Of a DNA stretch of 24,000 bases, positions 828 through 15,020 are shown one piece after another. Positions within the stretch are counted from its first letter, which is position 1. Each line of letters opens with the position of its first letter. The notes below the pieces were generated by a model. That model had not been told where the DNA came from, did not search any database, and was given only the letters and a program-made list of their open reading frames with translations. The stretch comes from Minisyncoccota bacterium (GTDB lineage Bacteria; Patescibacteriota; Minisyncoccia; Phycocordibacterales; UBA9973), in NCBI GenBank assembly GCA_036171755.1, contig JAVHRS010000035.1, forward strand, positions 2,882 through 26,881. The letters are read 5' to 3'. The translations under genes were made by a program, and so were the position numbers.

Positions 828-947
828 AATTAAATAATAACACTTCGACCTTATTATTCAAAGCCCATTGTATCGCAAACCCTTGAAATCATAGAGGAAG
901 TTACAAACAAGTTGCCAACGATTAGGGTTTAGTAGCGTACGTAGCAG

Positions 948-975
948 TTGACAAAAAGTTTGAATATGATATACT
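948..975 (+). promoter_or_regulatory. Sigma70-like promoter of the DGR target gene
   Basis: TTGACA (948-953), a 16-nt spacer, then TG-n-TATACT (967-975, extended -10). It is followed by a leader of roughly 85 nt before the ATG at 1063. Confidence 0.55.
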
Positions 976-1062
976 AAGCACTAGTAAACGATACCCGACC
1001 TCTATCTAACACATGGAACTTGGGTGTCGGGACCCAGTTCTTTAAATCTAAAAAATAAGACA

Positions 1063-1980
1063 ATGACAACAGAAAAGTTGATCACGTCTGCTCAAACAGA
1101 CAAAGTCGCAGATCTTGGCAGAGAAGCTGTAAAGACTGCAGTTGGTAAAGTAAATCCAACAAGTACCAATGTTCAAACTGGGATCATCAGCAATGGTCGT
1201 GAGTTCAAAAACAGAGTTGAAGAAGCTGTAAAAGCTATCATTCTGGAAATGATTACACCCAACCAGTACGCCAATGAGGTGGTAAGCTCAAGCTATGCCT
1301 ACCCGAAGGAATACAAGATGAAACCGATCGAAGAACAGGTAAGATTCATTGCCGAAAAGTTCGGACTTGATCCGACACAAGCATTGGAATTTATCAAAAT
1401 GTTACCCGCATTACCTGAAGGTGCCGAAGGATGGTTCGCCATTCCAAAAGTATTATCAGTTGCAAAAAAACATTTTTCTGCGATTACCAATTCTGCCGAA
1501 CAGTATTGTGAAGCCGTGAAATTAGTTCACAGCAAACTTGCTGAAAGCCGTAGCTTCTACAATTACCGTGAAGGTCAGATTACCACCGCACAGATTCGCC
1601 AACATCCCCGTACCATCAGTTTCCTCGAACAATTGGAATCTGAACAACAGGGTGACATTCTGATTCTCGCCGTTCAATACGGAATGAGACATCGTGGCAA
1701 ATCAGTTCGCCGTGCAAGAGAAACGTTCTCAGGTAATGAATTCGGACTTGGAGCATTCGCTCTTGGCTATATGGCATTGGTTCACCCCGATCGTTATGTT
1801 CGTTGGGAAGAACTTGATACCGATTGTGCAGGTGACGAATTTGCTCCTGGTGCTGATGGCGTGTTCTCGAAGGCTCCGATCTTCTACTTCAGCGATGTCG
1901 AGCTTGAGTTCGACACGGTCGATGTGTCCCGTGCCCGCGGTAGCTATGGTTCTGCCTCGGCGTTCGTTCCGCAGAATTGA
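1063..1980 (+). CDS. DGR target (variable) protein, family not recognised
   Basis: Long ORF. The track starts it at GTG 1024; I prefer the first ATG at 1063 (MTTEKL...), though neither start has a clear RBS. The C-terminal ~46 codons are the VR. I see no signal peptide, TM segment or known VR scaffold motif. The gene is visibly more GC-rich than the flanking DNA. Confidence 0.85.
   Translation: MTTEKLITSAQTDKVADLGREAVKTAVGKVNPTSTNVQTGIISNGREFKNRVEEAVKAIILEMITPNQYANEVVSSSYAYPKEYKMKPIEEQVRFIAEKFGLDPTQALEFIKMLPALPEGAEGWFAIPKVLSVAKKHFSAITNSAEQYCEAVKLVHSKLAESRSFYNYREGQITTAQIRQHPRTISFLEQLESEQQGDILILAVQYGMRHRGKSVRRARETFSGNEFGLGAFALGYMALVHPDRYVRWEELDTDCAGDEFAPGADGVFSKAPIFYFSDVELEFDTVDVSRARGSYGSASAFVPQN
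1840..1977 (+). repeat. DGR variable region (VR)
   Basis: VR 1844-1974 aligns base for base with TR 2349-2479 (offset 505). There are 15 mismatches, and every one falls at a TR adenine: TR 2355, 2390, 2397, 2403, 2405, 2411, 2423, 2424, 2435, 2436, 2441, 2442, 2445, 2448 and 2477. TR AAAA at 2345-2348 versus VR TTTG would add four more if the repeat starts there. Confidence 0.95.
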
Positions 1981-2044
1981 TCCTTGTACTTTGAATTCTT
2001 GAATCTTTTGTTTCCTTGATTCTTGATCTCAAAAATTTTTTTGA

Positions 2045-2076
2045 ATAGGGTTATCCACATGGATGACCCTATTTTT
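2045..2076 (+). terminator. Rho-independent terminator after the target gene
   Basis: 12-bp stem AUAGGGUUAUCC / GGAUGACCCUAU (2045-2056 / 2061-2072) with an ACAU loop, followed by UUUU. It lies ~65 nt after the VR stop codon and could also correspond to the hairpin described downstream of VR in some DGRs. Confidence 0.8.
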
Positions 2077-2344
2077 GCGTTTAATTCAAAAACTGATATA
2101 GTAACTATGAGCCTAGGTTAGTGTATAGTCGTTTACGGATGACTATCACCGAACTCTTTCTCTTATGAGAAATCTCCGACCAGAATTATAGTGATTATGG
2201 TTACTATAAGAGCGTCGCTGTGATAAGGGATACTGCTTACTACTTTTTAAGGCAAGCATGTAAATGTGTTGCCAGATAAAATACAGAATTGTGATTCATG
2301 TGCAATATCATGTTTCGTGATTTGTGATTTGGATAGAAAGTAGT

Positions 2345-2482
2345 AAAACTCCTGATGCTGATGGCGTGTTCTCGAAGGCTCCGATCTTCAACTTCAACGA
2401 TGACAAGCTTAAGTTCGACACGAACGATGTGTCCAATGCCAACGATAACTATGGTTCTGCCTCGGCGTTCGTTCCGAAGTAT
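2345..2482 (+). repeat. DGR template repeat (TR)
   Basis: Invariant copy of the VR. It carries in-frame AAC/AAT codons (six Asn codons) at the positions that differ in VR. The first non-adenine mismatch is at 2480 (T versus A), marking the IMH/IMH*-type boundary. The 85-aa track ORF 2324..2581 is this repeat, not a gene. Confidence 0.95.
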
Positions 2483-2493
2483 CCAATATACAC

Positions 2494-2521
2494 AAAAGGT
2501 ATCCTGTTAGGGATACCTTTT
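2494..2521. terminator. Bidirectional terminator hairpin between TR and the avd 3' end
   Basis: AAAAGGUAUCC / GGAUACCUUUU stem (2494-2504 / 2511-2521). The GC core has U-rich tails on both strands: UUUUGCUUUUAU on plus and UUUUGUGUAUAUU on minus. It ends 5 nt before the avd stop codon (2526-2528). Confidence 0.7.
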
Positions 2522-2525
2522 GCTT

Positions 2526-2873
2526 TTATCGTTCAACCGAACGAATCCATCCACCAAGCATTCTACCGATCTCGTCGGTAATATTTTGAAGCAGAGTGTA
2601 CTTCTTTACATCAAGCGTTTTACTTTCTTTCATTAGTCGAACAAAGAAACGAAAAATGTTTAATTTTACACTGGCTTTTTCAAGTAAAAGTAATTTGCGT
2701 TCTTTTGAAGAATAACTTGCTTCTAAGACATATTCGAGAATATCAATCATTACATTTTCAGATCGTTCATAGATTGAAAATCTTTCATGTTTTGGGACTA
2801 ATGTTCTGTATTCATGAAATGTTTTATATAACTCGTGAATTTTTCTTAGAATTGGCACATCATTTTCATTCAT
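2526..2873 (-). CDS. avd: DGR accessory variability determinant (Avd), four-helix-bundle type
   Basis: 115 aa. ...LNIFRFFVRLMKESK...ITDEIGRMLGGWIRSVER closely parallels the Bordetella phage bAvd C-terminus as I recall it (LRFWLRFL...EVGRILGSWIARV). It sits immediately beside a DGR RT but on the opposite strand. Confidence 0.85.
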   Translation of the reverse strand: MNENDVPILRKIHELYKTFHEYRTLVPKHERFSIYERSENVMIDILEYVLEASYSSKERKLLLLEKASVKLNIFRFFVRLMKESKTLDVKKYTLLQNITDEIGRMLGGWIRSVER

Positions 2874-3929
2874 ATGCGTGTATTTATCAATTTATTTAAT
2901 TCATTAATTCAGCCAGAACACCTATTTTATTCATGGGAGGAATTTAAACGTGACAAAGGTTTAAAGGAAGATATTCTCTTATTTGAGAAAAATCTTGAAA
3001 GTGAAATATTTAAGCTTCACCGAGAACTAAAAGGAGAAGTGTATAAACATAGCGGATATGAAAGTTTCTTTATTTCAGATCCGAAACGAAGACATATCCA
3101 TAAAGCAACAGTTAGAGACCGTGTAGTACATCATGCAATTATGCATACATTGTATCCTCTTTACGACAAAACATTTATTGATAATTCATTTTCTTGTCGT
3201 GTTGGTAAAGGGACCCATAAAGGTGTTCTTGCCCTTAGATCTATGATTGCCAAGGCGAGTAAAAATAATACTCAAACTGTTTACATTCTCAAGTGTGATG
3301 TTGAGAAATTTTTTGATTCAGTTCATCATATTATTTTAATTGATATACTTAGAAAAAGAATTAGGGACAAAAAACTCATGGATTTACTGATAGAAGTAAT
3401 TGAGAGTTTTATAAGTGATCGTTCTACTTTATTTGATCGTGTAGGTTTACCAATTGGAAATCTTACATCTCAACTTTTTGCAAACATATACATGGATAAA
3501 TTTGACCAATATATGAAGCATGAATTGAAAGTAAAATACTATGCTCGTTACACAGATGACTTTGTTATTGTGAGTAAAAATAAAGAATACTTGTCTAACC
3601 TTAAATTAGATATTTCTAAATTCCTTAGTGAGTCACTAAGACTTACTATTCACCCAAAGAAAATTACCATTCGTAAGTATACTCATGGTATTGATTTTCT
3701 AGGACATGTTTCTTTTCCACATCATGTATTGATAAGAAAAAGAACCTTAGAAAGAGCTACAAGAAGAATTAATGAGAAGATTGTTTTGTATAAAGCAGGA
3801 TCTCTTGAGAAAGAGAAACTTGAAGCCACTTTATACTCATATCTTGGAGTCCTTTCTCATGCCAATGCTTATAGATTTTCTGAGAAACTGAAGAATGACT
3901 ATTTTCTTTCGGTTAATAATCCTAATTAA
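2874..3929 (+). CDS. DGR-type reverse transcriptase
   Basis: 351 aa. Contains IGNLTSQLFANIYM (the DGR-diagnostic [LIV]GxxxSQ motif), the catalytic box YTDDFVIV, DFLGH, and N-terminal DPKRRHIHKATVRDRVVHHA. Adjacent to a TR/VR pair and avd. Confidence 0.95.
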   Translation: MRVFINLFNSLIQPEHLFYSWEEFKRDKGLKEDILLFEKNLESEIFKLHRELKGEVYKHSGYESFFISDPKRRHIHKATVRDRVVHHAIMHTLYPLYDKTFIDNSFSCRVGKGTHKGVLALRSMIAKASKNNTQTVYILKCDVEKFFDSVHHIILIDILRKRIRDKKLMDLLIEVIESFISDRSTLFDRVGLPIGNLTSQLFANIYMDKFDQYMKHELKVKYYARYTDDFVIVSKNKEYLSNLKLDISKFLSESLRLTIHPKKITIRKYTHGIDFLGHVSFPHHVLIRKRTLERATRRINEKIVLYKAGSLEKEKLEATLYSYLGVLSHANAYRFSEKLKNDYFLSVNNPN

Positions 3930-3981
3930 AAAAATTCGACTAGGTTTTATAATCAGCTAATTTGATTAAAGCTTTACAGAA

Positions 3982-5073
3982 TTACTGGCATTGAGGGCTT
4001 AATGTACGACTAGGAAATGAAGAAAGTAACGACTCTAAAGAAGTAAAGGATTTTATATATTTTTCATTTAATGACTTCCAACCATCACATGTTTCTGGAT
4101 AATAATATTTAGAAGTTGAATATGATGATGTGTAATACTTTCCAGTTGAGTTGGTGGTGTTTGTAGAAGTAGAAGAGGATGTTGAAGTCGCAGTAACAGC
4201 AGAAGTTGTAGTATTACCATTACATGTATTAGTAGACCATAACCCTAAAAGATTTGCTTGAGCATATTTTTGTGCTGTTTTAAATTCAGATTGATATTTA
4301 TATGGCGAGTTATAAGTATACTCATGTGCATATCCCTGTTCAATCATGTATTTATTATAAAATAGACCATCTTCTCTATATACATATGCTAAAGTACGCC
4401 CGTATTTATCGAGAGTGCCTTGAGTTGAATCACTTTCAATTCTAACTTTTTTCCCTGATAATAATTCTTTTGCTTTATTGGATGCCTCTTTACCAAAACA
4501 TTGAACTGGTTTCCTTGGATCAAGTGTTTCTGGGGTGTCTAATCCGATAAGGCGAAGCGTTATTATTGCTCCGTCTTTATTTATTTTAATAGTATCCCCA
4601 TCAACAACGCTTGAAACCGCATAATATTTATATTGAGAATTAGGCGAAGTTGTAGGTGTTTGTGCAGAAGTCACCGATTTAACTTCTTGTGCATTTTTTA
4701 CTTCTTGTTTAGCGGGTATTATTTCATTATTTATCTGTTGAGCTGGATTTTTTGTTTCTACTTGAACATTTGTATTTTCTAAAACATTATTATTTTGTGG
4801 AGCAGGTATTATTTCTGTTTTCTTTGGAAGAAAAATAGAAGAAACAATTAATAAGACAATTACAGCAACAATTTTTATTGTCCTTGAAAAGGAAAAATTA
4901 AATTTCTTTTGAATAAATTTAGAAATGACAGGAATTGTAATTAGTGAAGCAAGAATCATAAATATTCCACCTAGAATACTTTTTTCTAAAGTACTAAGAC
5001 CAGCTATTAACAACAATATACCTATGATCCAAGATAGAATGTTGATTAGATTTAATTTAATATTTTTATTCAT
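3982..5073 (-). CDS. Membrane-anchored thermonuclease (SNase) family nuclease
   Basis: Two N-terminal TM helices and a low-complexity linker precede the SNase core (VVDGDTIKI...RLIGLDTPET...CFGKEAS...DKYGRTLAYVY...GYAHEY). A Ser/Thr-rich tract and a small Cys-containing C-terminal domain (KYYYPETC...SPQC) follow. Confidence 0.85.
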   Translation of the reverse strand: MNKNIKLNLINILSWIIGILLLIAGLSTLEKSILGGIFMILASLITIPVISKFIQKKFNFSFSRTIKIVAVIVLLIVSSIFLPKKTEIIPAPQNNNVLENTNVQVETKNPAQQINNEIIPAKQEVKNAQEVKSVTSAQTPTTSPNSQYKYYAVSSVVDGDTIKINKDGAIITLRLIGLDTPETLDPRKPVQCFGKEASNKAKELLSGKKVRIESDSTQGTLDKYGRTLAYVYREDGLFYNKYMIEQGYAHEYTYNSPYKYQSEFKTAQKYAQANLLGLWSTNTCNGNTTTSAVTATSTSSSTSTNTTNSTGKYYTSSYSTSKYYYPETCDGWKSLNEKYIKSFTSLESLLSSFPSRTLSPQCQ

Positions 5074-5087
5074 AATTTGTAAATTAC

Positions 5088-5456
5088 TTAAGAAATGATA
5101 TTAATTAAAATAATTAGTCCTATAAAAATGGCTATAGCAATAAGAATCATTTTTCTCTGTTTGATATTTTTTACTTCTGCCTTTTTGTCCTCTGAAACAG
5201 CTTTTTCTATTTCTTCTTTAGACATAACCTCGCTTATTATCTTTTGTGCTCTTGGGGAGTCCATAGGTATTAGACTTGGACTTTTGCACTTAGGACATAT
5301 TTTATGTCTTGATGAGGAACGCCAAATTGAATAGATTAGCCCTGGGATAATAAAACAAAGCCAAAGGATTACTTCTATACAACCATTCCCTCCAATCGCA
5401 CCCTTTGGTTCACCGACATAATTACATTGAGTACAAACTAATATTTTTGATGACAT
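5088..5456 (-). CDS. Small membrane zinc-ribbon protein (LITAF-like arrangement)
   Basis: CTQC, then a hydrophobic stretch VILWLCFIIPGLIYSIW, then HKICPKC. This split zinc ribbon around a membrane-inserted segment resembles LITAF/SIMPLE domains. There is a second TM at the C-terminus. Confidence 0.6.
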   Translation of the reverse strand: MSSKILVCTQCNYVGEPKGAIGGNGCIEVILWLCFIIPGLIYSIWRSSSRHKICPKCKSPSLIPMDSPRAQKIISEVMSKEEIEKAVSEDKKAEVKNIKQRKMILIAIAIFIGLIILINIIS

Positions 5457-5480
5457 ATTTAAAAAATTAATTAATAATAT

Positions 5481-6194
5481 TTATTCATATAAAACAGTTA
5501 AAATGCCAGTACCAGAGAAATCACCTTGGTTTGGGGTATGGATTGTTATTACAGATTTTCCATATTTGTAATCTATGTTAGGATTAACATTTATTTTTTC
5601 CTCTGGAATTCGTATCTTTGGATAAATACCGCCAAAAATAATTTGGTCTGAGTTGAAATGCTGAGTGTAAACAAGTTTATCATTCTTTGACATTGAATTA
5701 CTGCCAGCGTATAACTTCACATCAGCTGTAATTAACATTTTTTCTGTTGCGTCACTAGTTATAATATCTCCATTTTTATCTAAATAAACTACTTCAAGAA
5801 CAGGTCCATCATTCTCGACATCAGCATCCCAATTATCTTGTAGTCCTCCACTAACTCGTATGGCAGATAGTCCATCTATCTGTAAAGTTTTATTAGATGA
5901 TATTGGTGTTGTTGGGACAACTTGAGTATTTGCGACCACTGGTACAGTTTTTGGAGTGGTAACTATTTTATTTTGAACCACTGTATCTTTTTGTATTACG
6001 TTAGTTTCTGCTACCGCAACAGGACTACTTACTGTTGATTCGACAATTGGAATCTCATCTTGTATTGGAATTTGAGCAATAGGTTCTTTTTTGTTTGAGA
6101 ATTTAGAACCAACAAATAGACCAATAACAAGTATTGCAACTATAACAACGATCTTACCTGTCATAGTTTCCATAAATTGTTTTACATCTTTCAT
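5481..6194 (-). CDS. Signal-anchored secreted/surface protein, unknown function
   Basis: 237 aa with an N-terminal hydrophobic anchor IVVIVAILVIGLFVG. The rest is not recognised. It is the first gene after leader RNA copy B and is tightly packed with the two downstream genes. Confidence 0.7.
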   Translation of the reverse strand: MKDVKQFMETMTGKIVVIVAILVIGLFVGSKFSNKKEPIAQIPIQDEIPIVESTVSSPVAVAETNVIQKDTVVQNKIVTTPKTVPVVANTQVVPTTPISSNKTLQIDGLSAIRVSGGLQDNWDADVENDGPVLEVVYLDKNGDIITSDATEKMLITADVKLYAGSNSMSKNDKLVYTQHFNSDQIIFGGIYPKIRIPEEKINVNPNIDYKYGKSVITIHTPNQGDFSGTGILTVLYE

Positions 6195-6403
6195 ATTAGA
6201 TTTACTTTTGCGTTTTTAGTGATAAAACCTAGTGATAAGACACAAAAAGCCCACCACATAGGTAGAGACCGAAGTCTCTCATATCAGTTTCCCGATACGG
6301 CATATCACGCGACCCCATATGATGGGTTCTTTATGCGTGATATGACTAACTTTCACCATGCCTTTATTTCTAAAGGTTTAGGCTACTTAAACTATTAACT
6401 TGT
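6195..6403 (-). ncRNA. Structured ~200-nt 5' leader RNA, copy B
   Basis: 6202-6397 is the second copy of 627-820. Helix changes relative to copy A are compensated: CAUAUCACGC/GCGUGAUAUG, GAGAC-UUCG-GUCUC and AUCGG-GAAA-CUGAU. It starts ~7 nt downstream of a perfect minus-strand TATAAT (6415-6410) and ends at the ATG at 6194. Confidence 0.8.
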
Positions 6404-6409
6404 AAAGAA

Positions 6410-6415
6410 ATTATA
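6410..6415 (-). promoter_or_regulatory. -10 box (TATAAT) driving leader copy B and the nuclease operon
   Basis: Perfect TATAAT on the minus strand, placed just before the point where similarity between the two leader copies begins. The -35 is weak or unclear. Confidence 0.45.
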
Positions 6416-6519
6416 CCTTATTTTTTAAGGTTGCACCATATTAGCTCACATTTAAATATTTGTGTAGTCGAGTTATCAACTAGAAGAAATAAGACTATAA
6501 AAATAGTGCAGTATTTACA

Positions 6520-7110
6520 CTATTTATTTTTAATTTTATCCAAAATATCTGCATAAATATTTAATGGATTAGATAATATTTTATCACTTTTTGTTGAAAT
6601 AATTTTATAAAACTTTTCATAAAACCAGAGTTGATCTTCCTTTGAGGAATTAAATTTATCCCAAATTGAATTATTGGTGGCCATCTCATCTAAAATTGTT
6701 TTTAAATTATGTATCTTATCACAAAGAGAAACAGTAGTTGCCTCAAGTGAAGCATTTTCTAGATGCTTTAAATATTTTTCTTTTCTTATTTTCCATGTTT
6801 CTTTATCATTACTTTCCATCTCAGGATCTTTATCTTCTGATACTTCTTTTATTATTTGTAAAACTTTTTCACCAAAAGTATTTTGGATAGAATTCTCCTT
6901 CTCAGACATTAAAACTTTTACATCTTCCAAAACATCATGCAACAAACAGGCAATAAAAATATCTTCATCATCAGTAAATTGACTAGCAATATACATAACC
7001 GAAAAAGGGTGAGAAATATATGGAATCTTTTCCTCACCTTTTCGAAAATAACCATCATGGAATTTTGCAGCAATTTGAATTGCTGTATTCAACCTAGAAC
7101 TAAAATTCAT
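6520..7110 (-). CDS. HD-domain phosphohydrolase, RelA/SpoT-type (p)ppGpp-hydrolase-like (small alarmone hydrolase-like)
   Basis: AIQIAAKFHDGYFRKGEEKIPYISHPFSV...ACLLHDVLEDV matches the SpoT/Mesh1 HD hydrolase pattern (H..Q.RK...PY..HP ... LLHDvvED). The protein is 196 aa and single-domain. Confidence 0.8.
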   Translation of the reverse strand: MNFSSRLNTAIQIAAKFHDGYFRKGEEKIPYISHPFSVMYIASQFTDDEDIFIACLLHDVLEDVKVLMSEKENSIQNTFGEKVLQIIKEVSEDKDPEMESNDKETWKIRKEKYLKHLENASLEATTVSLCDKIHNLKTILDEMATNNSIWDKFNSSKEDQLWFYEKFYKIISTKSDKILSNPLNIYADILDKIKNK

Positions 7111-7115
7111 ATAAT

Positions 7116-7367
7116 TTATTGATTGAGTGTATGTCCTAAGTATTCAAAACGATCAATCATTTTTCCATCTTTCTCAACTTTCTCAAAAAACATATCTAGT
7201 GGGCGTGCTGAAACCATAGAGCCTTTTCGATCCTTTAAATCACCATTAAGAGGAATATAAACAACGAGTCTCTCTTCTGTTTCTGTATGACGAGCAATAG
7301 CAAGAACTTGTACAAGAAGCCCCTTAAAGTGTTTATAAATACCAAGTTTAACATCTAAATTATTCAT
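7116..7367 (-). CDS. DUF1653 family protein
   Basis: LGIYKHFKGLLVQVLAIARHTETEERLVVY...ARPLDMFFEKVEKDGKMIDRFEYLG matches the DUF1653 pattern as I remember it (YRHYKG.LY.V...A.HSETEE.LVVY...RPL.MF...V...G..V.RFEY.G). Confidence 0.8.
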   Translation of the reverse strand: MNNLDVKLGIYKHFKGLLVQVLAIARHTETEERLVVYIPLNGDLKDRKGSMVSARPLDMFFEKVEKDGKMIDRFEYLGHTLNQ

Positions 7368-7398
7368 AAGTTTAAATTATTTTTATCTAATAATACTA

Positions 7399-7426
7399 TT
7401 GATTATACCAAAATATATAGTATAAT
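7399..7426 (+). promoter_or_regulatory. Promoter of the Csx3-like fusion gene (near-leaderless mRNA)
   Basis: TTGATT (7399-7404), a 16-nt spacer, then TATAAT (7421-7426). The ATG at 7435 is only 8 nt past the -10 box, so the transcript would have almost no leader. Confidence 0.55.
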
Positions 7427-7434
7427 CAATATAT

Positions 7435-8667
7435 ATGAAAGAGGGTCAAGAAAGTTTTATACATAAAGATAATAAAATTGAACAAAAGAACTTTTTTGAA
7501 AAAGGTCTTAAAATTGTTGTTGGTGGACCGCCACATTCAGGTAAATCTGTATTTCTTGATGGATTATTAAAAAATCTTCCATATAATACTCACTATTTTA
7601 GTGGATGCCCTGATGGCGAAGGCCCATGGCTCCAAAGACACTATACTGAAGATGAGGTAAAAGCATTACGTCGTAAAGGTTCGTTTACGGAAGAGTTTGT
7701 AAATTTTGCACATGATGCAGTCAAAGACTTTGATGGTCAACTTATGCTTATTGATATTGGTGGTCGAATTACTCCAGAAAATATGAAAATTATTTCAGGG
7801 GCGACTCACGCAATTATTCTTTCTGGTGATACTAAAAATTTTGATGAATGGAATGATTTTTTTAAGAAGGAAGGTATAGAAATTATTGCAAAGCTTCATA
7901 GTGATTATGAGGGTAAAGAAGATACAATAACGGAAGATAATGAACAAATACAAGGTAGTGTTCATTATCTTGAAAGAGGACAACATCCAGAAGATAGAGA
8001 GAGTATAAAATTTGTTGCTGAACATATTACCGAACTTGTTAAAAAAAATGAAGAGAAAAAGAATATATCATTAGAGGATAATAATGAGCTTTTGAAAGTG
8101 GACTCATTAGTTTTTGAATATAATCTTAAGGCTAATTATGATAAAGAAACAGTTCCTGAGACATTAACTGGCTTACAAAAATATTTAAAAGATAATTATA
8201 GTGATTCTAAACAAATCAAGATCGATGGGCGTATAAATTCATATCTTGCTGGTTTTTTAGGAACTGAACTTGCAAATGGAGAACGAAAAATATCTTTCAA
8301 TAGTCCAAATGGTTTTGTTGGATTAAAGGAACTCAATCAATCCGAAAATGGAAATGTTATTGATTGGGAACAAAAAGAAAATATTACAAAACATGGAGAT
8401 TCTTTTCTTGAAATTAATTTTAAACTAGACCCATCAAAGCCTTTTAAACCAGAAGATTTAGATGAAATGAATATCCCTAAGATTAGCACGGGTAAAATTG
8501 TATCTATTGGCGGTAAGGGTCCACATTGGCTTAGAACGTCTATTGCAATAGGATATAAAAAGGATGCACAAGTTATTGCTATGTTCATTCCAGGAGAAGG
8601 ATCTATTGTTGTACATTCAAAAGATATAGAAAAATATCCCCTTGGAACATTACTTGAAAATAAATAA
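7435..8667 (+). CDS. P-loop NTPase fused to tandem Csx3-like (Crn3 ring-nuclease-like) domains
   Basis: The N-terminus has a Walker A motif, VVGGPPHSGKS. The C-terminus KIVSIGGKGPHWLRTSIAIGYKKDAQVIAMFIPGEGSIVVHS parallels A. fulgidus Csx3 as I recall it (GVVISGRGPIWLHCFLAHKY...VAVYDPRLGAVVVQS). A degenerate copy lies upstream (IKIDGRINSYLAGFLGTEL...ISFNSPNGFVGL). Not verified by search. Confidence 0.65.
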   Translation: MKEGQESFIHKDNKIEQKNFFEKGLKIVVGGPPHSGKSVFLDGLLKNLPYNTHYFSGCPDGEGPWLQRHYTEDEVKALRRKGSFTEEFVNFAHDAVKDFDGQLMLIDIGGRITPENMKIISGATHAIILSGDTKNFDEWNDFFKKEGIEIIAKLHSDYEGKEDTITEDNEQIQGSVHYLERGQHPEDRESIKFVAEHITELVKKNEEKKNISLEDNNELLKVDSLVFEYNLKANYDKETVPETLTGLQKYLKDNYSDSKQIKIDGRINSYLAGFLGTELANGERKISFNSPNGFVGLKELNQSENGNVIDWEQKENITKHGDSFLEINFKLDPSKPFKPEDLDEMNIPKISTGKIVSIGGKGPHWLRTSIAIGYKKDAQVIAMFIPGEGSIVVHSKDIEKYPLGTLLENK

Positions 8668-8691
8668 CCTCATAGATAAATCTATGAGGTT
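8666..8691. terminator. Bidirectional terminator between convergent genes
   Basis: 11-bp perfect stem AACCUCAUAGA / UCUAUGAGGUU with a UAAA loop and A/T-rich flanks. It overlaps the stop codon of 7435..8667. Confidence 0.75.
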
Positions 8692-8713
8692 ATTTATTTA
8701 GGAAACATTCAAA

Positions 8714-9616
8714 CTAATTTAGCTTTTCCTCAATCATCTTGAACTCTGGAGTATTACCAAATTCAGATCGTATTTTTTCTAAAAGATTTTTGATCATCTC
8801 TTTATCCATTTTAATCATTCCAGATTCTTCAAGATTCTTACCTTCCTGTCGAAGTGATTGAAGCCCAATTACTTCAGCTAATTCGAATTGTCTTGTTTCT
8901 GGATTAGAAGCTAAACGAATCATATTAGGCCATTGTCCACTAATACCATAGATTGCTGTTGTTTGAAGTGTTCCTAATGCCCCCAAACCAGCAGGAGCGT
9001 AAGCAACCTTACCTGATTCCCAGTCACCAACAGTCATACCGGCTTTTTGAGACGCTTCAACAAGAGCGGAAATAATTTTATTTTTCCCATCACCAGAAAT
9101 TTCTTCCGTAGTAATTTTATTGTCCCCAAAAGGTACAAATACAAGATTTTCTACTGTTGTCCCCATTTCTTCAGCAAGTGCTAAATGTTGATCAGCTGAT
9201 ATAGGGTGTCCACCTTGTAAAACAAATGTTTTACCCGATGCACTTCCTTCAATTCTCTGTCCACGAGCATCACGAGAAGCTTCATGTCGCCATTCAGACA
9301 AATTGATTTCAACGGGTTCTGATCCTGGTACAACAAGAAGAGCTTTTTTAGGTAATCCTGCTATCATTTCAGTGAGAGCAAGAAATATTCCAGATGCATG
9401 AGCCTGCCCAGGCAAAGCTATCTTGTCTGCATTTTTAATCTTACTAAGATTTGCAGAAACATATTCTTTTACTTGATCAATTAGATGCTTATCTTTTTCA
9501 AGATTAAGATTCAATACTTCTGTCTTTATATTTTCTCCAGTAATTGTAGGTACTGTTGAAAATGTGGATTCTGGTTGCTTTTCAGCAGAATTTACACGTT
9601 CAAATTTTGGTTCCAT
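8714..9616 (-). CDS. Unknown two-domain protein, paralog of 9718..10548
   Basis: 300 aa. It is collinear with the upstream gene product: EINLSEWRHEASRDAR versus ELNLHDFRHNQARPKR; TTVENLVFVPF versus GTETLVFANL; YAPAGLGALGTLQTTAIYGISGQWP versus MITAGLSPVNAILVTALHALCESWC; FELAEVIGL versus FHFTDLIQL. It has its own TGn-TATAAT -10 box on the minus strand (9653-9648). Confidence 0.75.
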   Translation of the reverse strand: MEPKFERVNSAEKQPESTFSTVPTITGENIKTEVLNLNLEKDKHLIDQVKEYVSANLSKIKNADKIALPGQAHASGIFLALTEMIAGLPKKALLVVPGSEPVEINLSEWRHEASRDARGQRIEGSASGKTFVLQGGHPISADQHLALAEEMGTTVENLVFVPFGDNKITTEEISGDGKNKIISALVEASQKAGMTVGDWESGKVAYAPAGLGALGTLQTTAIYGISGQWPNMIRLASNPETRQFELAEVIGLQSLRQEGKNLEESGMIKMDKEMIKNLLEKIRSEFGNTPEFKMIEEKLN

Positions 9617-9673
9617 ATATTTTATAAAGTTAATTACTAATAATTTGATTATAACATTTTTTTACAATAAAAA

Positions 9674-9700
9674 AGAGCGATTCCAATGTGGAACCGCTCT
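9674..9700 (-). terminator. Rho-independent terminator after 9718..10548
   Basis: On the minus strand: AGAGCGGUUCCA-CAU-UGGAAUCGCUCU followed by UUUUUUAUUG. Confidence 0.75.
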
Positions 9701-9717
9701 TTGCCAGTATGTTTAGA

Positions 9718-10548
9718 TTACCGGTTAATTTTTCTCAATTCATCCCCGAGTAACGTTCCTTCGGGATGTTCATTGAGCAATTGCTCAAAAACATCTTTAG
9801 GAACAAGAACGGGAGCACTCCCAGCGTTTGCAGTTCTGCCAAGGGCTTCCATTTTTCCCAACTGTATTAAGTCAGTGAAATGGAAAGTTCCTTCTTTGTT
9901 TTCTGCAACTGGCTGAGAACACCAGCTTTCACAAAGAGCATGTAGAGCAGTTACCAAAATTGCATTTACTGGGGAAAGTCCCGCAGTAATCATGATAACT
10001 CTGCGACTGGCAATTGAGTTACTAACTCCAGCACTTGAAAGTGCATTTGTTAACTCTTCAAGAAGCCATTCCGCTAAACCATTTTGACCTAAGTCAATCT
10101 GGCCAAGCTGAAGGTTAGCAAATACCAGTGTTTCAGTCCCAGCCAACTCAGAGAGCTCGGCTTTTTGGTGTTCAGGTACTTCACGTCCTGAAGCATTCAC
10201 AATAATCACTGCATCCTGGGACAAATTGTCCTCAGTTGCAAGGAATGTTGCACGCTTCGGCCTTGCTTGATTGTGACGGAAATCATGGAGATTTAACTCT
10301 CCCTTATTAATTCCATCAGGTCCAATCAAAGCAATCGTGGGAAATGTATTATTCTTTCCACGCAAGAATGCGCAGATTGAACTTCCAACTCCTGGTATCG
10401 GATGAAGCACTACTACCTCTTCTGTAGAGGCATTGACTCCAGAAATTTGAGCTTTAATCTGCTCTGCAATTGGAGTTCCGGGAACAATACTGAATGCGTA
10501 ATTCTTTTCACCTTGTACGCGAGGGTTTGTTGAAAATAAAGTTTTCAT
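9718..10548 (-). CDS. Unknown two-domain (Rossmann-like?) protein, paralog of 8714..9616
   Basis: 276 aa and relatively GC-rich. Strand-loop-helix elements VVVLHPIPGVGSSICAFL and RVIMITAGLSPVNAILVTALHAL suggest nucleotide- or ligand-binding folds. No family recognised with confidence. Confidence 0.75.
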   Translation of the reverse strand: MKTLFSTNPRVQGEKNYAFSIVPGTPIAEQIKAQISGVNASTEEVVVLHPIPGVGSSICAFLRGKNNTFPTIALIGPDGINKGELNLHDFRHNQARPKRATFLATEDNLSQDAVIIVNASGREVPEHQKAELSELAGTETLVFANLQLGQIDLGQNGLAEWLLEELTNALSSAGVSNSIASRRVIMITAGLSPVNAILVTALHALCESWCSQPVAENKEGTFHFTDLIQLGKMEALGRTANAGSAPVLVPKDVFEQLLNEHPEGTLLGDELRKINR

Positions 10549-10584
10549 TTTTTTATTTTTTAAATTAAAATTATTTATTATTCA

Positions 10585-10642
10585 CTCTTGAAATGAATAT
10601 TATAAGTACTTATTTAAATACCCATAATACTCATTTCAAGAG
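10585..10642 (-). promoter_or_regulatory. 19-bp hairpin in the 5' UTR of 9718..10548
   Basis: Arm 10585-10603 (ctcttgaaatgaatattat) pairs with 10624-10642 (ataatactcatttcaagag). The single imperfect position (10597/10630) is A.C on the plus strand but a G.U wobble on the minus strand. The loop is 20 nt. Confidence 0.6.
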
Positions 10643-10730
10643 AATTGAATAAAATTTCAACAAACCTAATTGAGATATTTATTAAAGAACAATTTTATAA
10701 GGCTGAATTTTCTCCTAACCCTACTTGCCT

Positions 10731-10759
10731 ATGATAGCATATTTATACTTCTTTGTCAA
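10731..10759 (-). promoter_or_regulatory. Candidate promoter for 9718..10548
   Basis: On the minus strand: TTGACA (10759-10754), a 17-nt spacer, then TATCAT (10736-10731). It lies downstream of the hammerhead and upstream of the 19-bp hairpin. Confidence 0.45.
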
Positions 10760-10801
10760 GTATTATATTGACATAAAATATAAATAATGTTAAAAAACAA
10801 T

Positions 10802-10854
10802 TCTATTTTCGTCCTTTTGGACTCATCAGTCAGGGCACACACCCTGAGAATAAA
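10802..10854 (-). ncRNA. Type III hammerhead self-cleaving ribozyme
   Basis: Minus-strand RNA: UUUAUUC^UCAGGG-UGUGUG-CCCUGA-CUGAUGA-GUCC-AAAA-GGAC-GAA-AAUAGA. The core is complete: C3-A9 CUGAUGA, the G10.1/C11.1 pair, G12A13A14, the A15.1-U16.1 pair and C17. Stems I (6 bp) and II (4 bp) are closed hairpins. Stem III is open: 6 bp, AAUAGA/UUUAUU, including one G.U. The predicted cleavage is after C17, between plus positions 10848 and 10847. Confidence 0.85.
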
Positions 10855-10899
10855 GGGTTCAGGAATATGTCCATCCCCCTTATTTTAATTAAAGAACAA

Positions 10900-11784
10900 T
10901 TACAGTCTCCTCAACACGGCCTCATCAAATACATTTATAGCATCAGAGCTTACTACGTTAGCAAGTTTAAAAACTTGTTGTACTAAATCTGTAGCTTCTG
11001 TTTTTGAGAGTTTAGGTTGTAGGTTCTGATTGATAGATTCTTGTAAATACCACTGTCTAGGTGATAATAACTTGAACCCAGCATCACTAACTTTTTCTCT
11101 CCATCCATCTTCTGGAAGAATTTCTTCATCTTCATGACCTTCATAAAAAGGTTTAGAGGATTCAGGCATCCACGAAGACATGTTTTGCGAACAGTATCGA
11201 AAACCTTTTACATCAAAATAATCATATCCGAGTTTTTTAATTTCTGTTAAAAAACTCAAGTCTGATACTCCTGAAATATAAGGATGTGCAATTGGCAAAC
11301 ACGATACACCGAACTCTTTTGCAAGAGCTAATGTATGCAAATGTTTTTGAAGAGAAACTTTTTCAATACTCCAATTTCCAGTTATACCTAGTATAAGATA
11401 AAAATTTGGATATTGTGCTAATTTTTGCATAACTTCACGACTAATTGGCCATTTTGTTACGCAAGTTGTAAGTTTTGCAACACTACTTGCTTTTTCCATC
11501 CATTCCCATAGGTATTTTTCAATTTTCGGGAAGAACGGATCAGTAATTGCAGTAAATCCTACAAAGTCACCTTTTAGAATTTTCCAAGGAAATTCTTTAA
11601 AGCGTTTTTGTTCATCCGAATCAGTATCAATCCATGGTGTGACATTCACAAAGCTACATGCTTTATTTATCCCCATTAATGGATTTTGATTCCAAATTTC
11701 TCTACGTACTTCATGCTCTGTGATGAAGCAGTATTTACAGGCAACTGGACATGCCGGCTCACCTGAAACGAATTTTTGTTTCAT
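10900..11784 (-). CDS. Radical SAM enzyme (SplB-like/'DNA repair photolyase'-type barrel)
   Basis: Contains CPVACKYCF (CxxxCxxC), followed by GFTAITDPFFPKIE and CVTKWP, which resemble the COG1533-type tDPYqP.E / TK pattern. I prefer the ATG at 11784 (MKQKFVSGEPACPVACKYC). The track start at 11859 would overlap the upstream gene by ~100 nt. Confidence 0.8.
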   Translation of the reverse strand: MKQKFVSGEPACPVACKYCFITEHEVRREIWNQNPLMGINKACSFVNVTPWIDTDSDEQKRFKEFPWKILKGDFVGFTAITDPFFPKIEKYLWEWMEKASSVAKLTTCVTKWPISREVMQKLAQYPNFYLILGITGNWSIEKVSLQKHLHTLALAKEFGVSCLPIAHPYISGVSDLSFLTEIKKLGYDYFDVKGFRYCSQNMSSWMPESSKPFYEGHEDEEILPEDGWREKVSDAGFKLLSPRQWYLQESINQNLQPKLSKTEATDLVQQVFKLANVVSSDAINVFDEAVLRRL

Positions 11785-12340
11785 TATCAATTTTTGGTTT
11801 TTGTATCTCACATATACCAATGATTTCATCGAGCACCTTATTGGGTGATTGATCTGCATTAATTACATGTAAGAGATTTTTTGAAGAATAAAATTCAAGT
11901 AGCTGTGGTATCCTACCTAGTTCAATAAGTAAGCGTTCGTTCATTTTTTCAAGTGAATCATCTTTTCTGTTTCTGTCTAAGGCACGTTTTATACATAACT
12001 CATCACTGAGTTCAAAATATATAACATGTGTAGGTTTAATAGAAAATAATTCAGCTTGATGTACATTTCGTGGAAATCCATCAACAACCCATGAATCTAA
12101 ATCCTGAAGTTTTGATTGTGCAATTTGCACAGTTAGTTCGTCAGGAAGTGGTTTCCATGTTTTTTGATTAAAGTGGTCTCGAATAGATTGATGCAAGGAG
12201 TGCTCAAGGTTAGATGCTATTTCGCGTGATACATCACCAATAGAAATATGTGGTATTTTGTATTTTTGCGAAAGCATCTCACCTTGAGTTCCTTTACCTG
12301 TACCTGGTTTACCTAACAATACGATTTTCATATCTTTCAT
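11759..12340 (-). CDS. Adenylate-kinase-like nucleoside monophosphate kinase (short, no zinc lid)
   Basis: IVLLGKPGTGKGTQGEMLSQKYKIPHISIGD and VVDGFPRN match the Adk P-loop and NMP-binding signatures (GxPGxGKGTQ, DGFPR). Its 3' end overlaps the radical SAM start, suggesting translational coupling. Confidence 0.8.
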   Translation of the reverse strand: MKDMKIVLLGKPGTGKGTQGEMLSQKYKIPHISIGDVSREIASNLEHSLHQSIRDHFNQKTWKPLPDELTVQIAQSKLQDLDSWVVDGFPRNVHQAELFSIKPTHVIYFELSDELCIKRALDRNRKDDSLEKMNERLLIELGRIPQLLEFYSSKNLLHVINADQSPNKVLDEIIGICEIQKPKIDNETKIRFR

Positions 12341-12352
12341 TGTATTTTAAGA

Positions 12353-13582
12353 TTAAGAATTCGTAAAGAGGTTATTATAGGTAAAACTTTTTTTGCAAAC
12401 TTTAGTCTTTCTATCCTCTGGAAGCTCAATCATCTCAAGTAACCTAGAAGGATTAAAACCGAAGCTTTTTTGTTCATGAATATAATATTTCTCAATACAA
12501 TATTTGCAATCGAAACATTTCTTCATTGCAGTAGCTATTGGCCACCATGAGTTCAAACAAGTGATTTCAGGAACTTTTGGGAAATTAGGAAAATTAACTT
12601 CTCCAACATCCTTCATTCCCTTATCTCTACAACCATCTTGCTGGCATATCATACCAGTAAGAAACCTCATAAAAGTGAGATCTCCTAAACGAATTTTACC
12701 TCTAACTTCTATATGAGGATTTTCGTTTAAAAAGAAACACGTCGTGCAACATGATATACATTTAAGGCGATTACTTGCCTCAACATCACATTTCTGTTGC
12801 ACTTCATTCCCAGCAACAAACTTTACGTCGTAGCCAAGTTCTTTTAAAAACTCGATACTACCTTCACGAGGTTCAGATAGTCCTTGACAAGTCGTAAGAA
12901 GTGGACAACTTACCTCACTACATTTCACTAATTTTGGTGAATTGTAATAAGGGTTATATGTCCACTTATGCCCAAGCAAGAAGTCCACAGCACAGCTTGT
13001 CCTTGTGAACAACTGCACTCCAAACTCTTTACTTGCTGCTAAAGTATCAGACCAGATTTCGGGTGTAATTTGCTTTACCCGCAGGACCCATTCGGTCACT
13101 TCTGCGGGTTGCATTTCGTTAACAAGCATCTCATCCCCACGAAATCCAGCCACTACTGCCGCTCGACAATTGACTTCACTAAGACGACGGAAGATATAAT
13201 TAATTGTCTCCCGATTAGTATTGTACGGCGGAGTCAATGGTCTTATATACCCAATAGCAGGAACCCCTACCTCATTTAAGAGGCGGATATTCTCGTATCG
13301 GTGCTCATGTCCTACATTTTCCATACTTCTAAGTTCAGAGATGGAAACGAGGACCACGATGTTCAAGCCTTTGTCCTTACGAAGACGAAGATCAGCGACC
13401 TTACCCTCGCAAAGACGACCCTTCAAAATCAAACCTACTGGACCCTCATGATGAGTCTCCAATAGATCATCCAGTTTTGTGAGCGTATCCGACCACTGAA
13501 GAGTCGGGTCCCCATAAAAGTTATTTATAGAGACAGGAATCTGTCGAAGCAAACTCTTATACATTTCTGTTTTTTCTTTCAT
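12353..13582 (-). CDS. Radical-SAM-like barrel paralog lacking the N-terminal CxxxCxxC, with a Cys-rich C-terminal extension
   Basis: The N-terminal half parallels the neighbouring radical SAM protein: VSINNFYGDPTLQW versus GFTAITDPFFPK, and VVAGFRG versus DVKGFRY. No Cys triad precedes it. The C-terminal half carries CSEVSCPLLTTC, CDVEASNRLKCISCCTTCF, CQQDGC and CFDCKYCI. Confidence 0.7.
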   Translation of the reverse strand: MKEKTEMYKSLLRQIPVSINNFYGDPTLQWSDTLTKLDDLLETHHEGPVGLILKGRLCEGKVADLRLRKDKGLNIVVLVSISELRSMENVGHEHRYENIRLLNEVGVPAIGYIRPLTPPYNTNRETINYIFRRLSEVNCRAAVVAGFRGDEMLVNEMQPAEVTEWVLRVKQITPEIWSDTLAASKEFGVQLFTRTSCAVDFLLGHKWTYNPYYNSPKLVKCSEVSCPLLTTCQGLSEPREGSIEFLKELGYDVKFVAGNEVQQKCDVEASNRLKCISCCTTCFFLNENPHIEVRGKIRLGDLTFMRFLTGMICQQDGCRDKGMKDVGEVNFPNFPKVPEITCLNSWWPIATAMKKCFDCKYCIEKYYIHEQKSFGFNPSRLLEMIELPEDRKTKVCKKSFTYNNLFTNS

Positions 13583-13673
13583 TTTTTTATTTATTTTAGT
13601 TTACAAGAGTGATGATAATATCACCACCCCAAAAACTAAAATAAATTCTGAAAGAAAAGTTCCTATCTTTCTA

Positions 13674-15020
13674 CTACAAAGCAATCTTATTTATTGCTTT
13701 AATAAACCTCTCTGCATCTTCTTCTGTGTTCTGTAATCCAAATGAAGCTCTCACAAATCCTGGTACTGCATTTTCCTTACCATTTTGTACATCCTTTATG
13801 ATTTGTGTTTCATCTTTTATTTTAAGTAATTTACGGACTACATTATAAACACAGAAGCTTCCAGCTCTAACTCCAATACCATATTCTTTATTAAGTCTCT
13901 CTGCAACTTCTTTATTAGTCATGCCTTTAATATTAAAAGGAATGACTGTGTTTAAATGTTTTTCATTTACATAAATATCTATTTTTGGATTCTTCTTCAT
14001 TTCCTCGTACACTTTCTTAGTTAATCCTTTCTCATATTCCTCTATATTTTTTATTCCAATTTCTTTAACTTTATTTAAGGCTATTGCCATAGACACAGCA
14101 CCAATAGCATTCGGAGTTCCTGGATCATGAGCAATTTGGTTATGATATCTAAGAAATTCTCCATTTTTTGTGATATAAGGTAAATTTCCACCCCCAATTT
14201 CATAAGAAATAAATTGATCAAAGAAATCTTTTGGTCCTATTAAGAATCCTCCACCGTATGGTGCATAAAATTTATGCCCTGAGGCGGCTAAGAAATCTAT
14301 ACCCATTTCTTCCATGTTTATTTCATGGTGTTGTATATACTGACATCCATCAACGATAAAGTATGCACCATTTTCATGAACAATTTTACCTATTTCTTTT
14401 ATCGGAGGACAGTATCCTGTAACATTTGATGAAGCTGTAAGAACAAAAACTTTGATTTTATTCTTAATAAATATTTTTTTAATATCTTCTAAGTCAAATT
14501 CAAATTCATCATTAACAGAATATTTTACAATTTGTTTACAACCTTCTTCTTGGATCTTTTTATTTACACTTTCCATTTCACTTATTGCCACTTGATTTAC
14601 TCCAAGTGATTTTATCCCTTCATTTTTCACCCAAGGAAGCCATGATGAGCTATGTTCTATATCAGAAACAGCTACTTTTCCATCAAGAAATGAAAAGAAG
14701 TGAGAGATAGAATTCATTGCTCCTGTTGTGTTTCCAGTGAATACTACATATGAATCATTTGGTGCTCCGACAAATTTACAGATAGTATTTCGACTATCTT
14801 CATATATGTCTGTAGATTTCTCTGACTTAGCTCCTGCTCCACGATGGACAGAACCATAAGAAATCATATAATCCATAACTCCTTTTTCTACATCTATAAA
14901 TGGTGAAGTTGTCGCGGCATTATCTAGATTCACATAAGAAACCTTTTCTAGTTTTTTTGTCTCTACTTGATACTCAAGTATTTCTTTTCGAAATAATTTT
15001 TTTGGATTAATTATATTCAT
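13674..15020 (-). CDS. Class V aminotransferase-fold PLP enzyme, cysteine-desulfurase-like
   Basis: Contains YVNLDNAATT, SVHRGAGAKSEKST and ASGHKFYAPYGGGFLIG (PLP lysine). VRAGSFCVYN is comparable to the SufS/CsdA RxGxHC active-site cysteine loop. Confidence 0.8.
   Translation of the reverse strand: MNIINPKKLFRKEILEYQVETKKLEKVSYVNLDNAATTSPFIDVEKGVMDYMISYGSVHRGAGAKSEKSTDIYEDSRNTICKFVGAPNDSYVVFTGNTTGAMNSISHFFSFLDGKVAVSDIEHSSSWLPWVKNEGIKSLGVNQVAISEMESVNKKIQEEGCKQIVKYSVNDEFEFDLEDIKKIFIKNKIKVFVLTASSNVTGYCPPIKEIGKIVHENGAYFIVDGCQYIQHHEINMEEMGIDFLAASGHKFYAPYGGGFLIGPKDFFDQFISYEIGGGNLPYITKNGEFLRYHNQIAHDPGTPNAIGAVSMAIALNKVKEIGIKNIEEYEKGLTKKVYEEMKKNPKIDIYVNEKHLNTVIPFNIKGMTNKEVAERLNKEYGIGVRAGSFCVYNVVRKLLKIKDETQIIKDVQNGKENAVPGFVRASFGLQNTEEDAERFIKAINKIAL

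Follow-up and report, generated by a model that had tools for sequence, protein, structure and literature searches.

The mechanism of reverse transcription in diversity-generating retroelements (DGRs) is known from a single phage element, in which the control RNA lies 3' of the template. In this element, that of Bordetella phage BPP-1, the 140-nt spacer (Sp) is located 3' of the template repeat (TR); Sp47-56 pairs with TR117-129, and priming occurs from the 2'-OH of A56, opposite G117 (Handa et al., bioRxiv 10.1101/2023.10.23.563531). After G57 and C58, Sp59-70 pairs with a segment of avd just upstream of TR to give the cPRT Stop duplex, and this is followed by a short stem-loop, the A-minor nucleotides A80 and A81, a single-stranded Thumb Ring and a hairpin that binds the reverse transcriptase bRT (Handa et al.). 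The stem-loop that binds Avd sits 'just downstream of TR' (Handa et al.), and the RT-10 motif was found in the spacer (Weinberg et al.). In bacteria of the candidate phyla radiation (CPR), 90% of DGRs have Architecture B3, TR-(avd)-RT with avd on the reverse strand, which is almost absent elsewhere (RT, reverse transcriptase; Wu et al. 2018, PMC5758913). DGR clade 2 is restricted to Patescibacteria, and its targets typically have no recognisable domains (Roux et al. 2021, PMC8144416). Here we describe a DGR found in a 24-kb stretch of DNA from a Minisyncoccota bacterium (contig JAVHRS010000035.1; 24,000 nt, hereafter the window), together with the RNA that precedes its TR.

The locus is an ordinary member of the known CPR B3 group. 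Its gene order and orientation are identical to those of Architecture B3, with no layout difference: TR on the plus strand, avd on the minus strand and the RT gene on the plus strand (Table 1). Like B3 and clade 2 elements, it is chromosomal, and its target has neither a recognisable domain nor a transmembrane segment. Beyond the DGR itself, the features that we did not find described are a leader RNA with a permuted two-duplex clamp and a CTTGA array behind the target gene. The layout was surveyed in 80 metagenomic loci fetched with the target, and in loci derived from a search with the RT. The order TR, opposite-strand avd, RT is present in every locus with enough flank, down to about 42% RT identity; in three loci (L054, L063 and L070) the cassette lies upstream of the target as a unit and in the reverse orientation. 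The sources of these relatives are mostly labelled Patescibacteria, Paceibacteria or Nomurabacteria, and some metagenome-assembled genomes (MAGs) are evidently mislabelled. The starts of avd (minus strand) and of the RT gene (plus strand) abut at 2873/2874 with zero intergenic bases, as they do in L001, L007 and L018; therefore each promoter must lie within the coding sequence of the other gene. The first-pass annotation of this DNA had been silent on the antisense avd, the B3 layout and the conserved structured RNA between the two repeats.

The variable repeat (VR) and TR belong to a direct repeat without gaps (1844-1977 and 2349-2482; 131-134 nt, offset 505). Realignment confirmed the earlier claim that all 15 mismatches between VR and TR fall on TR adenines. 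TR contains 30 A per 131 nt, of which 15 are altered in VR, compared with 0 of the 101 other bases; from these counts, the chance of 15 of 15 mismatches falling at A is about (30/131)^15, or roughly 2.5e-10. When read in the VR frame, 12 of the TR adenines occupy codon position 1 and 18 occupy position 2, while none is at position 3. The annotation had placed the variable positions in AAC and AAT codons, which is true for 8 of the 15; the remainder are in GAT, GAC and AAG. It had also counted 19 adenine mismatches out of 19 with the repeat starting at 2345. This is numerically true, but the four extra positions are not evidence of mutagenesis, because they are conserved on both sides: TTTG on the VR side encodes the F-A of DEFAP, which is conserved in the target family, and AAAA on the TR side is a conserved linker after helix H3 of the RNA described below. 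The extension to 2345 as a product of mutagenesis was therefore dropped. The mismatch at 1972 (TR A2477) lies at the edge of homology, and most VRs of related loci have C there (A in L061, T in L070); it may thus be a selected or a boundary position.

VR and TR share the GC-rich 3' end GGTTCTGCCTCGGCGTTCGTTCCG, a candidate for the initiation of mutagenic homing sites IMH and IMH*, and then diverge. No GC-rich hairpin abuts the 3' end of VR. The nearest hairpin is the terminator-like one at 2043-2074, with the CTTGA array in between, so that the VR end differs from that of BPP-1, where a GC-rich inverted repeat abuts it; no more than 34% of DGRs have a downstream inverted repeat (Wu et al. 2018, PMC5758913). 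A further copy of VR or TR was searched for across the 24 kb and none was found, which leaves 1844-1974 as the sole VR in the window. The same A-specific VR/TR pairs occur in more than 25 related loci, where 507 of 542 mismatches are at A, some misregistered rows being counted in. These pairs were found by adenine-tolerant scoring; a seed-based finder missed most of them because the VRs are heavily diversified. In the VRs of about 28 loci, a TR adenine is most often replaced by G (330 cases), followed by T (111) and C (66), a strong bias that could come from selection or from a misincorporation preference of the RT.

The proteins encoded next to TR are those expected of a DGR. The RT carries the DGR-type palm motif IGxxxSQ ([I/L/V]GxxxSQ), and the IGNLTSQ reported by the annotation is indeed present (GLPIGNLTSQLFANIY). 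Its best solved relative is the bRT of Bordetella phage BPP-1 (8ub7, E=2.9e-39, residues 8-333, full length), whereas other solved RTs match more weakly, namely the group II intron GsI-IIC RT (8.6e-23) and the retron Ec83 RT (1.4e-4). The annotation had named a grouping with group II intron or retron RTs as evidence against a DGR; with bRT scoring best among solved relatives, such a grouping is not what this comparison shows. The Avd homolog that it had listed was also found, on the minus strand: it matches PF22296 (bAvd) at 3.8e-16, above the cut-off, PHROG 3206 ('Avd protein of DGR') at 9.4e-20, and the NCBIfam model DivGenRetAVD (NF033474) at 4.9e-22, with 78.2 bits against a cut-off of 80. 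Against PDB sequences, Avd gave no match at E<=0.01.

Evidence of recent activity comes from closely related assemblies, whose consensus sequences stand in for reads. When a genome collection was scanned with the RT, L001 came up, with an RT 99% identical to that of the window. Homology between L001 and the window is limited to 941-6480 (96.5% over 5.5 kb), and the 300 nt upstream of VR are 99.3% identical. The two have no difference in 134 nt of TR, compared with 16 differences in VR, all at TR adenines. With L014 included, whose TR is also identical, the pairwise VR differences are 16, 18 and 20, and all 54 of these are at TR adenines; 26 of the 30 A sites are altered in at least one of the three strains, and none of the 101 non-A sites. 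The annotation had expected polymorphism confined to VR at TR-adenine positions with TR constant, and the related assemblies bear this out. The element was at work after these three strains had diverged. Mutagenic retrohoming into the C-terminus of the 1063..1980 protein, as had been proposed, is supported by the presence of all named components and by the strain-level variation of VR, and we are close to certain that the locus is an active DGR. As a separate observation, the 5' half of the target region (941-1500) is about 10% divergent between the window and L001, compared with about 3% in 1500-1840 and about 1-2% in the RT and avd genes, which suggests, from the distribution of differences along the alignment, that recombination has made the target gene a mosaic.

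Far from being neutral, the 370 nt that separate the two repeats contain a terminator-like hairpin, a promoter-like box and a conserved RNA leader. The box (TGATATAGT, TGnTATAAT-like) is kept 6-8 nt before the first conserved RNA block in the aligned loci, inverted cassettes included. The leader was aligned in 26 non-redundant loci, and its helices were obtained from a covariation scan of all column pairs and from RNAalifold, and were then extended. The invariant blocks are UAGG, GGAU, CCGAA, CCAGA, GAGAUACUGCUU, AU.AAAU.CA and GUG...GAU.G. In six helices over the 26 loci, 95.6% of 1160 cells are standard pairs, compared with 36-51% when the partners are slid; 30 of the 45 helix pairs have changes on both sides, and the covariation score is 0.546 compared with 0.09-0.16 for slid partners. 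None of 500 shuffles matched the observed percentage paired, the double-change counts or the covariation score. The minimum free energy fold of the single sequence 2108-2525 recovers the helices without an alignment (z = -3.8).

One of the six helices, Pa, joins the leader to the last bases of TR and their 3' flank. Pa was scored on an ungapped anchored alignment, as MAFFT columns misalign its outer part between subgroups. The full helix is 86.7% paired (38-54% when slid), seven of its pairs have changes on both sides, and 0 of 500 shuffles reach its covariation score. It includes conserved non-pairs, G2235.A2477 (25 of 26 loci) and U2231.(A/C)2481, and both RNAalifold and the single-sequence fold predict its core as enclosing H3 and TR. 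Rfam, searched over the 24-kb window at gathering score, gave no family around TR, and 1980-2560 searched at E<=10 gave chance-level snoRNA and snRNA matches only. Since there is no match even at E<=10, the leader is not the RT-10 motif.

The same leader plan was found by inspection in two more distant loci, L004 (5210-5540) and L006 (3275-3605), including a 12-bp helix that ends at TR. The RT of these loci is about 55% identical to that of the window, their TR is an unrelated asparagine-rich, lectin-type one, and their target is different; the leader therefore goes with the RT and not with the target. Both MAGs carry the label Gammaproteobacteria, probably because they were wrongly binned or labelled. 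We found no description of the leader RNA, its pairing scheme or the CTTGA array in the accessible literature on CPR DGRs. A published conservation survey could not have seen the leader, because it scanned 40 nt upstream and 100 nt downstream of TR.

This locus and BPP-1 share a bRT-type RT, Avd, A-specific divergence of TR and VR, and adenines at codon positions 1 and 2 (Handa et al. 2018). They also share two adjacent duplexes that bracket TR and are formed by one contiguous strand, primer-like and then stop-like. A conserved G2235 C2236 stands between the paired strands 2222-2234 and 2237-2249 and mirrors G57 C58 of BPP-1. In both, the duplexes are followed by a stem-loop and conserved adenosines (here H4 and 2276-2285), and a hairpin follows TR. 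The differences concern arrangement. While BPP-1 is ordered mtd-avd-TR-brt, avd is here on the opposite strand between TR and the RT gene; and the duplex-forming strand is 5' of TR in a 240-nt leader, whereas in BPP-1 it is 3' of TR in the 140-nt spacer. Written as modules, the order is a-TR-b-c-d-e in BPP-1 and x-c-d-e-a-TR-b here, that is, circularly permuted, with H1 and H2 added as a 5' domain. There is no match to the RT-10 or Sp motif, and the target is not Mtd-like. TR and the convergent avd are separated by about 45 nt, which leaves no room for a spacer-like RNA 3' of TR. Judged from the alignments, cis-acting duplexes of the template:primer and stop kinds are present with covariation, and their equivalence in function to those of BPP-1 is proposed by analogy. 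On this basis, that the leader would do the work of the BPP-1 spacer from a position 5' of TR seems to us somewhat better than an even bet.

The mechanism that we propose is as follows. A non-coding RNA of about 420 nt (about 2108-2525) would be transcribed from its own extended -10 promoter and ended by the hairpin terminator after TR; it would consist of the structured leader of about 240 nt, the 131-nt TR and a short 3' tail. One leader strand would form two adjoining helices, 2222-2236/2476-2490 (Pa) and 2237-2249/2334-2346 (H3). As these helices hold the 3' end of TR and its 5' flank, TR would be looped out with both ends clamped together. By analogy with BPP-1, the first helix would be the template:primer duplex that places the 3' end of TR in the active site of RT-Avd, and cis-primed cDNA synthesis would start near 2476-2477. 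A cDNA start near A2477/G2476 fits with the observation that VR/TR homology stops at 2476-2480, where Pa begins. By the same analogy, the second helix, stem-loop H4 and the invariant A-rich strand would form the stop element that ends the cDNA at the 5' end of TR. Adenines would be miscopied, and the cDNA would replace VR (1844-1974), recoding up to about 20 C-terminal codons of the 305-aa protein. Taken as a whole, an active B3 DGR of the CPR/Patescibacteria type is the explanation that we hold with high confidence.

The arrangement also recalls retrons. In retron RNA, a structured priming region is located 5' of the template, and the a2/a1 duplex sets the 3' end of the template beside the priming nucleotide. 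The likeness is one of topology alone (a priming-like region at the 5' side, and a duplex between the 5' region and the 3' flank); here, in contrast, a DGR-type RT is accompanied by Avd, the template nearly duplicates a VR that codes for protein, and no retron RNA family matches.

Three other explanations have to be weighed. That the locus is not a DGR at all, but a group II intron, retron or defence RT accompanied by a partial gene duplication, could draw on the retron-like msr-msd order just described, as known from retrons in general, and on the top NCBIfam match of the RT, which is the group II intron RT/maturase model TIGR04416. This match, however, falls far short of the cut-off (146.5 against 300 bits), bRT leads the solved relatives by a wide margin, the IGxxxSQ motif and a specific Avd are present, and Rfam found no group II intron or retron RNA family in the window. 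A duplication would not put 15 of 15 mismatches and 54 of 54 interstrain differences on the adenines of one copy, and we regard this explanation as practically out of the question. A fossil DGR, in which the element looks intact while its VR/TR differences are frozen from past activity, would be compatible with the fact that every comparison is between consensus assemblies. Yet all open reading frames (ORFs) are intact, the VRs of the window and L001 differ at TR adenines amid near-identical flanks with TR unchanged, and orphan targets of related genomes show the same adenine pattern (see below), which makes a fossil very improbable.

The third explanation accepts the DGR and concerns the leader, which may instead be a 5' untranslated region (UTR), serve in regulation or stabilisation, or add a domain for protein binding, with priming and stop located in the 3' tail and hairpin or provided in trans. 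The hairpin after TR fits the published position of the Avd-binding stem-loop, the leader has no sequence similarity to the BPP-1 Sp or the RT-10 motif, and the inner pairs of Pa are invariant and hence uninformative. Against this stand the two covarying helices that link the leader to both ends of TR; the order of the leader strand (primer-like, GC, stop-like), which mirrors Sp47-56/G57 C58/Sp59-70; the succession of H3 by a stem-loop and invariant adenosines, as in the BPP-1 stop element; the gap between TR and avd, too short for a spacer-like RNA; and the co-variation of the leader with the RT clade rather than with the target. We think this alternative rather unlikely. Several points nevertheless weigh against the explanation that we favour. 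The promoter and terminator are candidates called from consensus matches. The four innermost pairs of Pa are invariant across loci and, because they never vary, carry no covariation signal, while its outer part depends on ungapped anchoring and is itself imperfect in some subgroups. Compensatory mutations in BPP-1 failed to restore the function of the stop duplex (Handa et al.), and pairing alone may therefore not define function. BPP-1-like elements have been reported downstream of TR in some CPR DGRs, from a scan that took in 40 nt before and 100 nt after TR (Handa et al.); given this report, the 3' hairpin and the upstream/downstream duplex could be assigned differently. The mapping onto BPP-1 elements is topological, without similarity in sequence or in Rfam, and the fold of the VR domain, as modelled, could not be assigned with Foldseek.

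The proposed leader-RNA mechanism deals with the donor; the recipient side has a feature of its own. In 68 family loci, the 3' UTR of the target contains 3.6 YTTGR motifs per 90 nt, an enrichment of about 6-fold over controls (shuffles 0.6, control windows from these loci 0.65, sequence after TR 0.5), and the spacing of successive TTG is 7-9 nt in 239 of about 300 intervals. Tandem Repeats Finder did not detect this CTTGA array, whereas motif counts and spacing do. Complementarity between the array and the DGR RNA was sought by eye, and nothing consistent was seen. The array also follows orphans, that is, members of the family for which neither TR nor avd nor RT lies within 4 kb. The VRs of the orphans L045, L050, L059 and L060 differ from one another almost only at the adenine positions of the TR of the related locus L063; for example, L045 and L059 have a single difference in the 200 nt upstream of VR, compared with 10 in VR, each of them at an L063 TR adenine position. 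It follows that remote targets, too, are diversified by the DGRs of this clade. Judged from the sequences compared, the array accompanies recipient genes, whether near or remote, and is missing on the donor side, as expected of a target-recognition element, for which it is a candidate. A generalization can be offered only tentatively, and we rate it at a little under even chances: the RNA of B3-type DGRs, the majority of CPR DGRs, would be a circular permutation of the BPP-1 RNA, with its priming and stop strands, stem-loop, adenosine module and protein-binding hairpins all 5' of TR on a separate transcript of about 420 nt, in a retron-like order of primer and then template, and recipients, even remote ones, would be marked by the array with its 7-9-nt spacing, which would replace the hairpin adjacent to the IMH.

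The target belongs to a family without annotation, and VR occupies its last ~44 codons. The ATG at 1063 is supported by homologues that start with MTT. Relatives number 1877 in one database (E<=1e-3), and another gives 1882 clusters at 50% identity; those with a named source are all hypothetical proteins of Patescibacteria. The target gave no match to Pfam, NCBIfam, PHROG or PDB sequence profiles, and 99 family members searched against Pfam shared no common family, with scattered single-member matches only (best E=0.0094). An AlphaFold model built from a 99-sequence alignment of 50%-identity representatives has a mean predicted local distance difference test score (pLDDT) of 96.8 and a predicted template modelling score (pTM) of 0.90; a model from 32 sequences was poorer (pLDDT 65). 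The former predicts a helical N-terminal region, an alpha/beta middle and a beta-rich C-terminus that bears VR. Foldseek found no match for it at E<=0.001 in PDB or BFVD. The best weak matches to PDB structures are the Treponema DGR variable protein TvpA (E=1.4), formylglycine-generating enzyme and C-type lectins, which hints at a divergent C-type-lectin-like C-terminal end in the modelled protein. No signal peptide or transmembrane segment was seen by eye in the target, and the family possibly consists of intracellular proteins.

Two observations concern the coding sequence of the target. Since the gene ends in TGA and UGA is read as sense in some CPR lineages, recoding was considered; it was ruled out, as long table-11 ORFs fill the window and homologues end alike. 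In all 27 loci, the target outside VR is 10-30 GC points above its own RT and avd genes (0.44 for 1063-1843 vs 0.31 in the window, 0.63 vs 0.32 in L047), and C-ending codons are 2-5 times commoner in the target of the window than in the other genes of the window. The features of the locus are collected in Table 1.

Table 1. Features of the DGR locus, in window coordinates
Feature	Position	Strand	Evidence or remark
Promoter-like site TTGACA-16-TATACT with TG, upstream of target	948..975	+	11 of 12 consensus matches, best in region; candidate function
Target gene, 305 aa, family without annotation	1063..1980	+	ORF; homologue starts; VR = residues ~261-304
VR	1844..1974	+	15/15 mismatches at TR adenines; interstrain variation at TR-A sites only
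CTTGA-like array, target 3' UTR; candidate recipient mark	1977..2030	+	YTTGR at 1983, 1990, 1998, 2007, 2015, 2022; TTGA at 1977; spacing 7-9 nt
Intrinsic-terminator-like hairpin ending target transcript	2043..2074	+	14-pair stem then T run; equivalent hairpin in related loci
Extended -10 promoter-like box TGATATAGT, putatively for TR RNA	2094..2102	+	TGnTATAAT-like; candidate function
Conserved structured DGR RNA leader	2108..2348	+	~240 nt; covariation, shuffles, single-sequence fold
Helix H1	2125-2132/2139-2146	+	Covariation
Small hairpin	2157-2162/2167-2172	+	In leader
Helix H2a	2177-2180/2214-2217	+	Covariation
Helix H2b	2186-2194/2201-2209	+	Covariation
Helix Pa	2222-2236 (leader)/2476-2490 (last TR bases and 3' flank)	+	Anchored-alignment covariation
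Helix H3	2237-2249/2334-2346	+	Covariation; 3' strand stops 2 nt before TR
Helix H4	2252-2255/2269-2272	+	Covariation
Invariant A-rich single strand AU.AAAU.CA	2276-2285	+	Conserved block; variable hairpin after
TR	2349..2479	+	Identical in window, L001, L014
Hairpin right after TR, flanked by A run and T run	2493..2522	+	Probable bidirectional terminator for TR RNA and convergent avd; possible Avd-binding stem-loop
avd (accessory variability determinant)	2526..2873	-	Antisense to TR and RT; Pfam, NCBIfam, PHROG matches
DGR reverse transcriptase, 351 aa, motif GLPIGNLTSQLFANIY	2874..3929	+	ORF; RVT_1; phrog_1423 E=1.3e-110

In the surrounding window, two LOOT RNA genes (RF03000) are located on the minus strand at 687-807 and 6264-6384 (74.9 and 73.6 bits), within a 151-nt direct repeat (666-816 and 6243-6393) that has 12 mismatches. 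They bracket 941-6480, the sole block homologous to L001, which has the downstream copy only; the DGR may be part of a variable or mobile segment. A general link between LOOT and DGRs was ruled out, as L001 alone of nine related loci has a LOOT copy. Directly downstream of the RT gene, 3982-5073 on the minus strand encodes a membrane-anchored staphylococcal-nuclease-like protein (SNase, 6.3e-25), which is kept with the DGR block in L001. A segment of about 9 kb (6480-15460) is missing from L001 and may be an integrated element. It adjoins a large serine recombinase gene (15528-16856; Resolvase, Recombinase and zinc ribbon domains), which is itself 90.8% identical to 11114-12564 of L001. The 410-aa protein encoded at 7435-8667 on the plus strand ends in a CRISPR-associated Csx3 domain (3.5e-09); neither a CRISPR array nor cas genes were noticed in its vicinity. 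The RNA gene at 19651-19738 on the minus strand was called tRNA-Sec by Rfam (48.6 bits vs a cut-off of 47) and tRNA-Ser with anticodon TGA by ARAGORN, and is probably a long-arm tRNA-Ser.

Comparison of about 30 related loci thus brings out a conserved, covarying RNA 5' of TR that rebuilds the two-duplex clamp of the phage element. If the proposed role of this leader is true, it would explain how B3 elements function with an antisense avd between TR and RT, and the ribonucleoprotein architecture solved for one phage element would be found rearranged in the largest natural reservoir of DGRs. The priming site would be predicted around U2234-C2236, opposite A2477/G2476, and both this site and the target-recognition signal would be directly testable. 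For engineering, the locus would also provide a template RNA gene that is compact and self-contained. The CTTGA array is a candidate signal for the recognition of remote targets, the least understood step of retrohoming. The target family, with about 1,900 clusters at 50% identity and a confidently modelled, novel-looking fold, represents a large unexplored class of proteins under programmed hypervariation.

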